This document shows positions 1 through 10,906 of a stretch of DNA of 57,145 nucleotides, one piece after another. Under the pieces are notes generated by a model. The model saw only the letters and a program-made list of their open reading frames with translations, was not told the origin of the DNA and searched no databases. The position numbers were made by a program, and so were the translations under genes. Location of the stretch: positions 1-57,145 of the forward strand of contig NIVC01002926.1 in the NCBI GenBank assembly GCA_002269645.1, in the 5' to 3' direction. This DNA is from Macrostomum lignano. Its lineage: Eukaryota. The number at the start of each line of letters is the position of its first letter. Positions within the stretch are counted from its first letter, which is position 1.

Positions 1-2
1 AC

Positions 3-573
3 TAAATTCAAAAGTACAAGCACTTTAAACAATGGTTCGATTTGCCAGATCAGGCGGAAGTCATAAAATATCTAGAACAACAACACAACAACAACCACAA
101 CCACAGCACAGCAGCAACATTTCACAGAAGTACTCAGGCAACTGGAAAATGCAGATCCGACTCAAGTAGCTAAATATAAAAATGATCACCAGATGCCTGG
201 CAACACTTAGAACAACACTCTCCAGATCGAATGAACAGAATCAAGCAAAGAGTTTTCACACCTCAACAAAGACAGGCACCACATGACAGTTCCATCTCTG
301 AAAGTGAGCAGTCTTTTGCATCACCTCCCCAGCAGCTACAAGCCCAACCAACTCCACAACCCAAGACCAACCGCCCTCAACAGGAAAAGGAATTTCTGAA
401 ATCTACAAGCGAGTAGCGGTTCTTCTAGGAGCAGCAAAGACGGAATGAAAGATGAAAATAGAAAAGAATTTGTCAACATCCTGGACAAAATGATGGAAAA
501 GAAGTATATTGACAAACGGGCGAGAGAGCTTCTGCTTTCGCGGTTCAACAAAAAAATTTTATTTCAAGTAAAA
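3..573 (+). CDS. 5'-truncated, frameshifted Polinton ORF of unknown function
   Basis: Joining frames gives ...DAWQHLEQHSPDRMNRIKQRVF...YKRVAVLLGAAK/GMKDENRKEFVNILDKMMEKKYIDK. This resembles the 'RLxLLxGSxxAGN...EIxxILDxL' C-terminal motif I recall from Maverick ORFs. Boundaries are uncertain. Confidence 0.45.
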
Positions 574-960
574 ATGCCGATTATTTTTGAGAAAGACGTG
601 GACAAATACTATGACAAAGAGGAACTTAATCTCATTAAACGCGGATCTGGACTTTTCCCTGCAGGCCACTATCCAAGAAAAGAACGCTCTGGGAATGGCC
701 TTGCCGATTTGATCGCTCAGGGGCCAAGATTTTTAAGGTCATTGGAGAGAACAAAGAGAACATCAAGAACGTTGCCGAAGCGGCTGGCAGTGTAGCCACA
801 GCAGCCAAAAAGATAAAGGATACTGTAACACCTAAACAAGAGATTCAGCTCCACTGGCCCCGCTGGCTCCATTGGCCCCAAATCCAGACAGTGTGGACCC
901 TGCAGTCTATGAGAAGATGAGGCTAGCATTAAAAAAGGAAGTGGTTTCAAATTTGACTAA
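574..960 (+). CDS. Small putative virion core/precursor protein with GxG motifs (frameshifted)
   Basis: AAAA-ATG at 574. Reconstructed sequence: MPIIFEKDVDKYYDKEELNLIKRGSGLF...RSGNGLADLIAQGAKIFKVIGENKENIKNVAEAAGSVATAAKKIKDTVTP...EKMRLALKKGSGFKFD*. This needs about three single-base corrections, two of them in G/A runs. Confidence 0.55.
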
Positions 961-987
961 AGGGTACTTTCCGAGGGTACAAGACTA

Positions 988-1134
988 GTCCCGAAATGAC
1001 ACATCTAAGTCCCAAAATGACACATCTAAGTCCCGAAATGACACATCTAAGTCCCGAAATGACACAATTAAGTACCAAAATGACACATCTAAGTCCCAAA
1101 ATGACACATCTAAGTCCCGAAATGACACATCTAA
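988..1134. repeat. 7 x 21-bp direct repeat GTCCC(G/A)AAATGACACATCTAA inside the viral element
   Basis: Read directly. It encodes the MTHLSP(K/E) repeats at the start of ORF 996..1973. Confidence 0.95.
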
Positions 1135-1172
1135 ATTATTTATTATTTAAATTTTTTTTCATCATAGAAAAA

Positions 1173-8554: not shown

Positions 8555-9550
8555 TTAATTAATTTCCGTGTCAGCTGGTATTACTAGGAGTTCAGCTCTA
8601 GTGAATGACCGTGTGGGGGATTTAGGGTTAAAGGCCTGAGATAAAAAGTAATAGTCACCGGAGTCGGAGGTAAAATGTCTGTCTATTTTATGTACATCAA
8701 GGCTGAAGTATGGATCTGTAGCTCTTCTTTTGGTGTCTTTCTCTAGCTCTCCATGTAGATATAAAAAGCGTAGAAACTCAGAGTTTGTCAGTATGTATGG
8801 TGATTCAACTCCTGGAAGCTTAGGGTAGTTCGAGGTGTCTGTTCTAAGAGATGACTTAAGTTCGACAGTGTCTTGTTTAATTGCATGGGATGGTTTCAAT
8901 CCAGTCATGCGTGTGACTTCATTGTTCAGTTGCTCTATAACAGTGGGGAGCCGGTCTGTCCACTTGGTATAGTATTGGCCACTTTTTAGTTTCAGCTCTT
9001 CAGCTGTCTGCTTAGTGAATAGCCTCTTGGCTAGAGTTAGATTGAATCTCTCAACGTACGCTTGGTCTCTGTGCAAGTTTGTTCTGCCATAGCGAATCTC
9101 TGTGTCATGCTTATGTAGAAGTGATTTCACTGCACCCATGAATTCTTTGCCAGGATCAGTCATAAAGGTTTCAGGGTAGCTAAGGGGTGAGTTTTTATAA
9201 ATATCTTGGAGGGCGGCTGCAACTGCTTCTGACTTCTTCGTCTTGAGTGGGCGAGCTTCCTTATATCTGGAAGCAATGTCAATAATTGTAAGAGCATACT
9301 TGTAGCCTGAGTCGTTGGGGAGAAACAAAAGATCTGCTTGGTGCGCTTCATTAGGTTTATAGATGCTAAAGTGAGGTCTTGTAAATTTTACTGGTGGGAA
9401 ATAGACTTGAAAGACAGCCTGCTTAGAGAGCCACTTTTCTACTTTAGCTTTTGGTTCCTTACTTAGTTCTGCGAGTTTGGTGACTGCATTTTTTCCTACA
9501 AAGAATCCTTTGTCGCTGTAGTAGAGTTTTTTAAGTTTCTGATCTGTCAT
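8555..9550 (-). CDS. Retroviral-like (rve, DDE) integrase of the Polinton
   Basis: DDE triad in HQADLLFL, FMTDPGKEF and AYVERFNLTL. Polinton-type N-terminus (KLKKLYY...VEKWLSKQ) and C-terminal KRRATDPYFS. The likely start is AAAAAA-ATG at 9550; the ORF is open from 9586. Confidence 0.93.
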   Translation of the reverse strand: MTDQKLKKLYYSDKGFFVGKNAVTKLAELSKEPKAKVEKWLSKQAVFQVYFPPVKFTRPHFSIYKPNEAHQADLLFLPNDSGYKYALTIIDIASRYKEARPLKTKKSEAVAAALQDIYKNSPLSYPETFMTDPGKEFMGAVKSLLHKHDTEIRYGRTNLHRDQAYVERFNLTLAKRLFTKQTAEELKLKSGQYYTKWTDRLPTVIEQLNNEVTRMTGLKPSHAIKQDTVELKSSLRTDTSNYPKLPGVESPYILTNSEFLRFLYLHGELEKDTKRRATDPYFSLDVHKIDRHFTSDSGDYYFLSQAFNPKSPTRSFTRAELLVIPADTEIN

Positions 9551-9580
9551 TTTTTTAAAAAGAAAATTTAAAATAAAATA

Positions 9581-10231
9581 ATGCAACGCTCTGGTGGTAA
9601 GTTAGATTCACATGGACTGATAGAAAAGCTTCCTCATCCAAACAAAGGCTGGACACTTCCCGGCTATAAATATTGCGGGCCTTTGAATCCACTTGAAATA
9701 CAGTTAGATAAAAACAATAATCCACATCCTGGGCATGAGCCTGTGAACGAGCTAGACTCTGTCTGCATGTGGCACGATGTTAAATATAGAGATTTTCCTG
9801 AGGAGAAGAATCGCTGGGACAAAGAAATGCTTAAGAGACTAGACAATATAGGGGCTTCAAGCGGATTTCGTGAGTCGATTGCTCGGAAGCTAGTTAAAGC
9901 TGTTATTTTTAGTAAGGCAAAGTTGGGTTTGGGGGTTCAAGGCGAAGGTGGGTGTTTGGGGAGAGAGGGCGGGTGTGCGGAAAGAGAGGGCGGAGGCTTG
10001 GAAGCAGGGTTTATTTTGTGTGCTCCTAACAAGAAATTGGGAAGACTGCTGAAAGAGCTGGGGGTAGAGAGAGCGCGCGTGGGGGGGGGGAGAGAGATTT
10101 TCACTTTAACTGAGCCCAGCCGGGGAAGAATTCCGTCTCGAGTGAAGGCCAGAATGCAAAGGATTTCGGCCTCGCGCGAGGCCAAAATGAAAACGATTTT
10201 GGCCTTTCAGTTTTTTAACGCAATTGCTTAA
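9581..10231 (+). CDS. Parvovirus VP1-like phospholipase A2 domain protein (PLA2X-type)
   Basis: Ca-loop LPGYKYCGP, catalytic DSVCMWHDVKY, and D-KEML, followed by KAKLGLG. The Gly/Arg-rich tail after ~9930 may be read-through. Confidence 0.85.
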   Translation: MQRSGGKLDSHGLIEKLPHPNKGWTLPGYKYCGPLNPLEIQLDKNNNPHPGHEPVNELDSVCMWHDVKYRDFPEEKNRWDKEMLKRLDNIGASSGFRESIARKLVKAVIFSKAKLGLGVQGEGGCLGREGGCAEREGGGLEAGFILCAPNKKLGRLLKELGVERARVGGGREIFTLTEPSRGRIPSRVKARMQRISASREAKMKTILAFQFFNAIA

Positions 10232-10451
10232 TGATTTCTGCAAAGTTATAGTAGCTGTCGTAATCTTTTACATAGGTTACTCCATACTTATGAAACCAGT
10301 GTCTTTGGAGAGCTAGATTAATATTAGGGACATTGATATGAACGTCGGGCCAATATTTTTTCATGTATTCGCTGCATTCTAGTTTGCATCGGTACTTGGA
10401 TTTGTACAATGGATGAGTATAATAGGAACCTGGAGAGACAACTGGAAACAT
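10215..10451 (-). CDS. Small Tyr-rich terminal ORF of unknown function
   Basis: 78 aa with an AAAAAA-ATG start context like the other viral genes. It shares an upstream palindrome with pPolB. Confidence 0.55.
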   Translation of the reverse strand: MFPVVSPGSYYTHPLYKSKYRCKLECSEYMKKYWPDVHINVPNINLALQRHWFHKYGVTYVKDYDSYYNFAEIIKQLR

Positions 10452-10617
10452 TTTTTTATTAAGAATTTAATTTTTTTCAAAGGGTAAGGACCCTGGGTTA
10501 GGGGGTTTAAAGTCTTTGGGATCTGGTTTCGCCGCTTCGGATTGAATGTGGGGAGAATGCAGATTATTTTCTGATTGTTTCTGGGTGGATGTTAGTGGAT
10601 TATGTCAGTGTCAATGA

Positions 10618-10906
10618 GCATAACAGGTGTTAGTGGACACCTGTTATGCACTGATTCTGTCAGGGATAATATGGATGGATTTAATACGATTATGTTCGAA
10701 GTTTTCGGAGCAAGTGCGACCCCTCCACTTTTTCATGATTCTGTCGGGGATAATATGGATGGATTTAATGGGATTATGGAGGACGTTTTGTGAGCGAGTG
10801 CGACCCCCCTTTTTTTCTGATTCTGTCAGGGATAATATGGATGGATTTAGGTGGATTATGGAGGACGTGAAAAATTTTGTCCCAGAGCCCCCTCATGCCT
10901 TCTACT
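10618..10906. repeat. Probable right terminal (TIR) region: hairpin, 3 subterminal repeats and AGTAG end
   Basis: A 13-bp perfect stem at 10618-10649. Three copies of GATTCTGTC(A)GGGATAATATGGATGGATTTA at ~83-bp spacing. The end ...CCTTCTACT is at 10906. Confidence 0.65.

Follow-up and report, generated by a model that had tools for sequence, protein, structure and literature searches.

Among the closest described systems are the adintoviruses, whose family Adintoviridae has been renamed Eupolintoviridae and in which PLA2 is characteristic of the Alpha virion module (PMC8502044, PMC12451622). The TP-vOTU domain order of PolB has been described (PMC11071308), and a survey reports 748 pPolB1 loci in 8 of 73 flatworm genomes (Table S2 of PMC10748475). 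As of PMC8097293, no virions of endogenous animal Polintons had been observed. The flatworm Macrostomum lignano is a laboratory model with transgenesis (PMC7053086). The window analysed here, 57,145 nucleotides long, is the entire M. lignano contig C2926. An earlier note, made from the sequence alone, had described its positions 1 to 10906 as an endogenous adintovirus-type Polinton ending in a probable terminus. We confirm this identity: the stretch is a Polinton/adintovirus (Eupolintoviridae-type) insertion integrated in the M. lignano genome, and all six genes that the note had named were found by Pfam together with catalytic motifs.

The insertion (1..10906, unstranded) makes up the right-hand 71% of a 15.3-kb element whose left ~4.4 kb, with MCP, putative penton and left TIR, was lost at the contig start. 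The leftward extension that the note had proposed is impossible on C2926, which ends there; the missing part was instead recovered via the host flank. Two allelic contigs (G000:C4261:14422-29718 and C1527:3797-26342) contain this insertion in full and share its two flanks and its TSD. The complete allele measures 15,297 bp, and both alleles carry a predicted double-jelly-roll MCP, a penton-like gene, the left TIR and a perfect 6-bp TSD, so that the capsid genes and left TIR expected by the note within ~15 kb are found no more than 4.4 kb beyond the left edge of the window. The right terminus falls exactly at 10906, where the element ends …CTTCTACT, followed by the 6-bp TSD CAAGGA (10907..10912, + strand). 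This is the true end of the element because the 6-mer is duplicated at both insertion ends in C1527 and, as its reverse complement, in C4261. The right TIR (10220..10906, unstranded) spans ~690 bp, includes an 84-bp repeat present in 2.6 copies (10651-10868) and has the terminus 5'-AGTAG; the alleles show the TIRs with AG-type termini and the 6-bp TSD of Polintons. Outside the element lies the first coding exon of a host OTU-domain gene (11260..12196, + strand, spliced to 14645; OTU E 0.0017, below cut-off, on 48 aa), which we take to be OTUD5-like.

Pfam searches on the window genes returned an A32-type ATPase (5e-6), Peptidase_C5 (1.6e-4), Phospholip_A2_4 (1.1e-13), DNA_pol_B_2 with an Endonuclease_7 insert (1.9e-11), Adeno_PX (4.5e-7) and rve (5.5e-10). 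The element opens with the 3' part of a low-complexity/coiled-coil ORF of ~405 aa (1..555, + strand; shared pN/pS 0.14), frameshifted, conserved across the family by tblastn and without a Pfam family above cut-off. The 129-aa ORF that follows (574..957, + strand; shared pN/pS 0.05) is frameshifted in the window and also without a Pfam match; glycine-rich cleavage-like sites and an amphipathic-looking helix, judged by eye, suggest that it is likely a protease-matured internal virion protein. The A32/FtsK-type genome-packaging ATPase (1173..1973, + strand; pN/pS 0.04) has an open frame and Walker A/B motifs. A 21-bp tandem repeat is located just ahead of this gene. Two ORFs split in the window come next, a ~270-aa coiled-coil ORF (1990..2805, + strand; pN/pS 0.32) and a predicted membrane protein of ~240-250 aa with two hydrophobic helices (2917..3662, + strand; pN/pS 0.17), the latter with sub-threshold 2TM matches and a homologue in a second resident Polinton family (28%, E 3e-8). 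The adenain-type maturation protease (3640..4038, - strand) has an open frame and the catalytic residues H51/D69/Q98/C105 (H-D-Q-C); its match (PF00770) and that of the ATPase (PF04665) are both above the Pfam cut-off, with catalytic residues present.

The protein-primed polymerase B (4103..7956, - strand; ~1280 codons), with the predicted arrangement TP-vOTU-Exo (EndoVII insert)-Pol, is assigned by its Pfam match (PF03175, 44 bits against a cut-off of 25.8), its Exo I/II and Pol A/B/C motifs, and its relatives, which number 6883 among 8000 scored, the best at 34-45% identity. Its N-terminus presents vOTU-like Cys and His contexts, presumably those of the vOTU motif, and gave no OTU match in Pfam. 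Upstream on the same strand are a stand-alone pX-like core protein (8080..8538; frame open; Adeno_PX 30.1 bits against a cut-off of 25) and the D,D35E rve integrase (8555..9550; frame open; PF00665, 39.9 bits; D73/D132/E167), which has no chromodomain match in Pfam. The parvovirus-like PLA2 (9581..10231, + strand), with its Pfam domain at aa 22-106, is 216 aa in the window versus 166 aa in sibling copies; Pfam finds no pX domain on this ORF, Adeno_PX matching the separate gene. Finally, a 78-aa ORF (10215..10451, - strand; pN/pS 0.12) lies inside the TIR and therefore at both ends of most copies; judged by selection, it is a real gene.

The polymerase is frameshifted in the window (near 7.9, 7.4, 7.1, 6.9, 5.1-5.2 and 4.3-4.4 kb), as are three of the ORFs left without a function by the earlier note. 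Relative to the allelic contig C4261, the window differs by 9 substitutions and 59 indel bases across the 10.9 kb of element, its flank is free of indels over 2.1 kb, and many of the element indels are specific to the window, which suggests that most of the frame breaks are probably assembly errors. Among 18 two-ended copies, none has all eight core frames open and one has a full-length polymerase frame, both counts being confounded by assembly indels.

The capsid genes were analysed in alleles and siblings. The Pfam match of the MCP (PF21738, 3e-5) is below cut-off. Its best Foldseek matches are adintovirus, asfa-like and virophage capsids (E 1.9e-11), and in a structure comparison (VIA) the top 9 are all DJR capsids or scaffolds (best Z 10.5, rmsd 7.0, 318 aligned, from a poor predicted model with pLDDT 51.9); by these model comparisons, we assign the MCP as a double jelly roll. 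Database proteins resemble it at 70-77% (7 unnamed environmental proteins), 42-44% (three more) and at most 27% (the rest). Directly after the MCP lies a 287-aa gene (pN/pS 0.12) with a homologue in the second Polinton family. It is a putative penton by position, size and an Atlas feature match of 0.98 to unnamed viral clusters; it gave no penton match in PDB and nothing against the MCP profile. IMG/VR scans confirmed relatives in 0 of 10 pattern matches for pPolB and 0 of 167 for the MCP alignment.

This Polinton family is large and young, with more than 100 near-identical integrated copies. All 121 scored integrase matches are at 91-100% identity and all 98 scored MCP matches at 97-100%, 94 of the latter without a stop. 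The TSDs of the two-ended copies are perfect and all different in 16 of 18 cases, one further copy matching at 5/6 and one being unmatched. For variants shared between copies, pN/pS is 0.06 (MCP), 0.12 (penton), 0.04 (ATPase) and 0.10 (INT), as compared to 0.23-0.77 for singletons, indicating that the capsid and packaging genes are under purifying selection. Because the capsid genes are so strongly conserved, the family has likely spread through particles; the same selection indirectly supports virion formation by the integrated element, which the earlier note had raised as a possibility and which we consider likely. We find it unlikely that the family's sole mode of spread is that of a self-synthesizing transposon within the cell, whose capsid genes are a recent viral relic or are used inside the cell. 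Such a mode would suit the very high copy number, the insertion with perfect TSDs of copies devoid of capsid genes or polymerase, and a virion stage that is predicted from genes, but shared variants show the same degree of constraint on MCP, penton, ATPase and protease as on the integrase, a pattern that Barreat and Katzourakis took as reinfection by particles (PMC8097293). In two presumed-RNA read runs the element was covered evenly, with the TIR highest, as DNA carry-over would give.

A subterminal slot of the element holds at least 9 divergent genes (4-40% identical) of one predicted helix-turn-helix (HTH) family. The cassette is present at 14 of 34 integrase-side ends and 4 of 25 capsid-side ends, in 9 types, two of them at both end types. 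Database matches to the family number 4, of which 1 is outside M. lignano. The cassette protein gave nothing significant in Pfam, PDB sequence search, Foldseek (E > 0.3) or Atlas (0.91, below the recognition threshold); a tentative assignment to DUF3102 received no support. In a leave-one-out homology test on 5 cassette groups, one failed and one was marginal. The predicted model (pLDDT 90.7) has weak fold neighbours, the best being KorB (Z 5.2, rmsd 3.0, 75 aligned). The top structural neighbours of the C-terminal domain are KorB/ParB/SopB HTH domains (KorB also at Z 4.7, SopB 4.6, Spo0J 4.6), but such Z values are typical of common structural arrangements, identity is 9-14%, and the cassette has no ParB CTPase domain and no Pfam match; the modelled likeness is a resemblance, not membership. 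That the cassette encodes a DNA-binding regulator acting on repeats near the ends is our leading, though tentative, proposal. A role for the virus would be absent if the cassettes were passively captured pieces of other mobile elements, which we judge somewhat doubtful. Capture would account for the 20 of 34 integrase-side ends, the window's among them, that gave no HTH match (4 of the 20 being shortened by a false terminus match), for one type found in a 4.2-kb unit (92-94% identity) with no Polinton marker within 30 kb, for the tandem repeats that each type brings along, and for selection that is weak or unclear (pN/pS ~0.2-0.5, singletons up to 1.7, on small counts). It would however require that capture had delivered one protein family to one slot at least 9 independent times; in addition, frames are mostly open, and relatives, 44-50% identical to one type, lie near the ends of two other resident Polinton families.

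Fold-back copies, with mirrored arms of 4.7-5.5 kb and perfect TSDs, occur at 3 sites: C975, C633 and a third assembled three times with a single junction (C1652, C276 and C3945). Between the inner arms there are 1-6 substitutions over 4.5-5.2 kb, compared with 96.9-98.8% identity for the nearest other insertion sites, and the outer ~350 bp holds 11 of 12 arm substitutions in C975 and 6 of 10 in C633. Since their outer arm ends differ, we set aside for C975 and C633 the classic panhandle end-repair model of adenoviruses, under which these ends should be identical. For transposition of giant fold-backs in trans, no second site was found, C276 and C3945 being the site of C1652. Retention of the old outer TIR is as compatible with repair by the host after integration as with episomal copy-back. 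We give slightly less than even chances to the giant fold-backs and extended TIRs being products of post-integration host double-strand-break repair on the opposite TIR, as in Galileo, with no defective viral genomes involved. Host repair would preserve the TSD and would leave an outer TIR with differences next to a near-identical inner arm; each giant fold-back junction is at a single site, and Galileo offers a precedent for internal sequence recruited into TIRs (PMC4168063). Against it, a TIR extended into the penton gene recurs with an identical junction at 6 or more insertion sites with different flanks, so such products at least stay mobile, and the C633 fold-back needs two internal switches, one of which lies close to two start codons, at an overlap of ~28 nt, and resembles polymerase jumping. 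It is very unlikely that the fold-backs are artefacts of long-read assembly, despite C975 and C633 junctions each seen in one contig only, the lack of a strand-change joint among the 15 of 18 joints listed, and a centre flipped relative to the flanks between C1652 and C276 and C3945: the TSDs are perfect with flanks that are not mirrored, the single junction recurs in three separately assembled contigs, and the outer TIRs are unequal between arms.

We read the gene set, TIRs, TSDs, copy abundance and purifying selection on capsid and packaging genes as those of a young, high-copy Polinton whose ends act as a recombination zone, and we hold this reading as a whole to be very probable. The element would excise from the genome and likely replicate as linear DNA by TP-primed strand displacement, with vOTU freeing the TP. 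The ATPase would package the genome into likely double-jelly-roll particles, matured by the adenain protease; entry may be helped by pX/PLA2, and the integrase would reinsert the element, making 6-bp duplications. Pairing within the TIR common to both ends likely allows one of them to overwrite the other, which would yield TIRs of ~250 bp to 5.5 kb, including fold-back copies missing half of the genome, and likely carries the HTH cassette from end to end and from one co-resident Polinton family to another. A bolder version, which we consider improbable, is that of an active animal polintovirus in which fold-backs represent defective-interfering genomes, integrated and mobilised in trans, and the slot is a phage-style immunity/specificity switch, its 9 or more swappable HTH regulators with their own repeat arrays being traded among competing Polintons in one germline; if true, an animal Polinton life cycle would be directly observable in a transparent, transgenic laboratory flatworm. 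While the gene set is ordinary, about a hundred near-identical, constrained capsid genes in a transgenic model make this a good place to seek Polinton virions. The fold-backs and multi-site TIR extension record how Polinton ends are rebuilt, and the swappable cassette, an unnamed protein family, may reveal how Polintons sharing one genome control or exclude each other.

Our literature search found no description of this family (Repbase and bioRxiv supplements may include it), nothing relevant on Macrostomum with Polinton or Maverick, and nothing on fold-back Polintons or HTH cassettes; the entries listed in the Starrett supplement include no Macrostomum. The suggestion of a lineage not yet described in this host therefore stands only in part, as no describing paper was found and a published genome-wide table contains equally spaced pPolB-integrase loci of flatworms. 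Polintons of flatworms have thus far been catalogued in large numbers, this family probably included. The assembly behind the relevant row of Table S3, with a 1281-aa polymerase, we take to be that of M. lignano. In this row the polymerase lies 582 bp from a 1056-bp integrase, the spacing of our family, and the survey's available parts give coordinates only, with no description of family, TIR or cargo (PMC10748475). The M. lignano family also has no fusogen match, unlike these group-2/pPolB1 Polintons, for which the same parts do not discuss an EndoVII insert (PMC10748475).

With Alpha adintoviruses the family shares a PolB that matches PF03175 and is putatively OTU-bearing, an rve integrase, FtsK/A32 ATPase, adenain, hexon-type MCP, a gene of penton size, PLA2 and ITRs (PMC8502044, PMC12451622). 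It differs from them in having PLA2 and pX as separate genes rather than a fused PLA2X, an integrase with no chromodomain match and an MCP closest to the unnamed environmental proteins above. Named pPolB relatives are from Ladona, Mytilus and Nephila, hosts in the Alpha panel of PMC8502044, with Pinctada (Beta panel) also matched. By these hosts and the PF03175 match, the polymerase tentatively leans Alpha; a Beta/group 1 reading was dropped given the pPolB relatives, the Table S3 spacing and the Alpha-panel hosts. Vertebrate Mavericks resemble the family in their 12.7-24.6-kb elements, 6-bp TSD, AGT-type termini, accessory regions and purifying selection on capsid genes, whereas their TIRs are 46-1447 bp, against arms up to 5.5 kb here, and their copies average 22 (maximum 287, defective; at most 38 intact), against at least 98 assembled MCP frames at 97-100% identity in M. 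lignano (PMC8097293). Galileo/Foldback elements likewise recruit internal coding sequence into TIRs, which exceed 4 kb with identical TSDs, but Galileo is a P-superfamily cut-and-paste transposon and the M. lignano element is self-synthesizing and capsid-encoding (PMC4168063).

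The ORFs of window positions 1-10906 match Pfam as the earlier note had claimed, with a packaging ATPase, adenain, pPolB carrying an endonuclease VII insert, pX, an rve integrase and a parvovirus-like PLA2; motif inspection found catalytic residues in the element's proteins. The probable terminus that the note placed here is the element end, at 10906. Host flank 10907-12300 was matched in four contigs of the searched assembly and adjoins the terminus in all four. Because the window is the whole of contig C2926, the left part is absent for assembly reasons. The element is whole in contig C4261 (15,297 bp) and complete in C1527, where a 7.1-kb insert interrupts the integrase, and the MCP (double-jelly-roll, DJR, major capsid protein), penton-like gene and left TIR that the note proposed looking for were recovered from both alleles. 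Their left and right TIRs are 88% identical over 697 bp, and CAAGGA is duplicated at either end of both as the target site duplication (TSD). Between the window and C4261, the element differs by 9 substitutions and 59 indel bases and the flank by 1 substitution and 0 indel bases. A good number of these indels occur in the window's copy alone, and its frameshifts are therefore probably consensus errors for the most part. A penton frameshift that the two complete alleles have in common is probably genuine; core genes are broken in each of them. Several contigs per locus are compatible with the hidden tetraploidy described in PMC5704211.

A host OTU-domain gene (11260-12196 and 14645 onward) begins about 350 bp beyond the terminus; run contigs show it spliced, and its motif suggests an OTUD5-like protein. 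The insertion lies directly upstream of it in 4/4 assembled copies of the locus. Upstream of nearly all viral genes in the window, a T-rich run gives way to an A-rich one that ends at the ATG, and one template switch in the fold-back copy C633 falls in such a region.

The 428-aa MCP has a sub-threshold match to PF21738 and a poor predicted model (pLDDT 51.9). In Foldseek this model matched capsid proteins from adintoviruses, virophages and NCLDVs, the best at E 1.9e-11. Every one of the top 9 in VIA was a DJR protein, the best at Z 10.5 (rmsd 7.0, 318 aligned). Nine relatives were found among 4232 candidates, and a profile search returned 538 at E <= 0.001. A tree was built from 100 sequences 380-520 aa long together with local copies, shorter matches being excluded; in it the MCP groups with five unnamed environmental proteins (71-77% identity) on a long, fully supported branch. 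The putative penton is named from position, selection and an Atlas match. One copy (L021:5696-6988, contig C2068) has an MCP 83.5% identical to the common type and an integrase 96% identical to the window's, which may be read as mosaic subfamilies.

Within the family, integrase matches were 91-100% identical in 121/121 scored (1709 candidates), MCP matches 97-100% in 98/98 (666 candidates), and short DNA probes gave 467-627 candidates. Read depth over the element in one run was 60-140x that of the flank, a ratio that, by the tool's own warning, is no copy number. We infer several hundred assembled copies at on the order of 100 sites. We sampled 35 neighbourhoods from top matches, six of them picked for holding two matches. 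Of these, 18 hold regular two-ended elements, which span 14.0-22.7 kb and match the window core at 92-97% identity; perfect 6-bp TSDs, each one different, flank 16 of the 18. The remaining 17 comprised fold-backs (4 contigs), rearranged copies, and copies ended by a contig edge or the 20-kb fetch span. All eight core frames are open in 0/18 and the full pol frame in 1/18, counts confounded by assembly indels. For variants shared between copies, pN/pS was 0.06 for MCP, 0.12 for penton, 0.04 for ATPase, 0.10 for integrase and about 0.2 for pol. It ranged over 0.05-0.32 for five unassigned ORFs, one of them the 78-aa ORF in the TIR; singletons gave 0.23-0.77. This sample is biased by top-match choice to intact frames, and its mirrored arms and alleles are non-independent. 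Also seen were nested 5-7 kb inserts within core genes, a partial copy in tandem, and a 3.8-kb element that retains both termini around an internal deletion (C1527:17611-24696, C869:303-308 kb, C2829, C105:570682-574517).

Fold-back copies, hand-picked from opposite-strand match pairs, carry one element end twice: the integrase end in C975 (5.5-kb arms), the capsid end in C633 and C1652 (4.7-4.85 kb). Each has a perfect TSD, and its flanks are not mirrored. C1652, C276 and C3945 represent a single site that was assembled in triplicate and shows one and the same junction; no second instance of the C975 or C633 junction appeared among 40 scored candidates each. Giant fold-backs numbered 0/20 among integrase-anchored neighbourhoods and are therefore a few percent at most. 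Inner arms are 1-6 substitutions apart, and the nearest other insertion sites are 96.9-98.8% identical; each arm was therefore copied from its own molecule. Arm substitutions concentrate in the outer 350 bp (11/12 in C975, 6/10 in C633), placing the switch inside the TIR with the old outer end retained. The pattern fits a replication template switch or else host repair after integration, as described for Galileo (PMC4168063). In a smaller TIR extension, about 190 bp of penton are copied onto the integrase end with the same junction at 10 loci, beside at least 6 different flanks; such end-copying products therefore remain mobile. In C1652, unlike C276 and C3945, the unique segment that separates the 4.7-kb arms is inverted relative to the flanks, through either flip-flop recombination or assembly ambiguity.

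A subterminal cassette gene of a predicted helix-turn-helix (HTH) family, absent from the window's copy, occurs at 14/34 integrase-side and 4/25 capsid-side ends, as scored with a profile built from the same genes; a false terminus match shortened 4 ends. Its 9 types are mutually 4-40% identical, each accompanied by its own tandem repeats, and two occur at both end types. Leave-one-out profiles linked 3/5 groups at scores above those of shuffles; a fourth group was marginal and the fifth failed. The model (pLDDT 90.7) comprises a helical hairpin and long helix, then a helix-turn-helix, and weakly resembles KorB/ParB (Z 5.2, rmsd 3.0, 75 aligned). A Pfam search of the protein gave no match, and 3 of its 4 database matches are from Macrostomum lignano, the host that near-identical database proteins indicate by their names. 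Selection is mixed. Relatives occur in two other resident Polinton families, close to the element ends (44-50% identical to one type), within fragment clusters, and in a 4.2-kb unit that lacks Polinton markers. We conjecture that the cassette encodes a DNA-binding regulator whose targets are the end repeats. The 4.2-kb unit (L116:4207-8389 and L117:1296-5431, 98% identical) holds one cassette gene (92-94%), has no Polinton marker within 30 kb, and is possibly a non-autonomous element or cassette donor.

The second resident family (L121/L151 in C2379, L124, L131) has an EndoVII-type pPolB that is 33-38% identical to that of the window's family, and it carries a separate MCP and penton as well as cassette relatives; the third (L125, L127; C13:646-656 kb, C2129) has a different pPolB class and a cassette relative near its end. 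Short-fragment clusters at C1391:128-154 kb and C273:210-261 kb draw on several Polinton families and on a large variety of cassettes, predominantly in one orientation, and resemble a transposon-trap or candidate piRNA-cluster locus. Elsewhere in the window, a two-exon cytochrome P450-like gene cluster (41622-43399, 51508-53416, 54932-55636; heme motif visible) is surrounded by long micro- and minisatellites.

The proposed life cycle starts from the observed anatomy, repeated integration with 6-bp TSDs, virion-gene constraint and end-to-end copying. By analogy with established Polinton and adenovirus biology (PMC11071308 and PMC4028283), replication would be protein-primed, with a vOTU cleaving the terminal protein. 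Packaging and maturation are likewise predicted, as is entry with the help of PLA2.

By the criteria for Polintons the element is one. Flatworm Polintons have been catalogued in bulk (748 loci, PMC10748475 Table S2), and the spacing of the window's family occurs in 1 of 60 rows examined, of 748, in Table S3; such insertions are noted in Rhabditophora in bioRxiv 10.1101/2025.04.19.649669. Within the articles covered, including portions of PMC8097293, PMC3671162, PMC11131425, PMC12451622 and 10.64898/2026.10.13.758929, we found no account of this family, fold-back Polintons or the HTH cassette. The element leans tentatively towards Alpha adintovirus / group 2 / pPolB1 but, unlike the Alpha adintoviruses of PMC8502044, lacks a PLA2X fusion. 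It is a known kind of element with two unusual end features, the fold-back or extended TIRs and the cassette.
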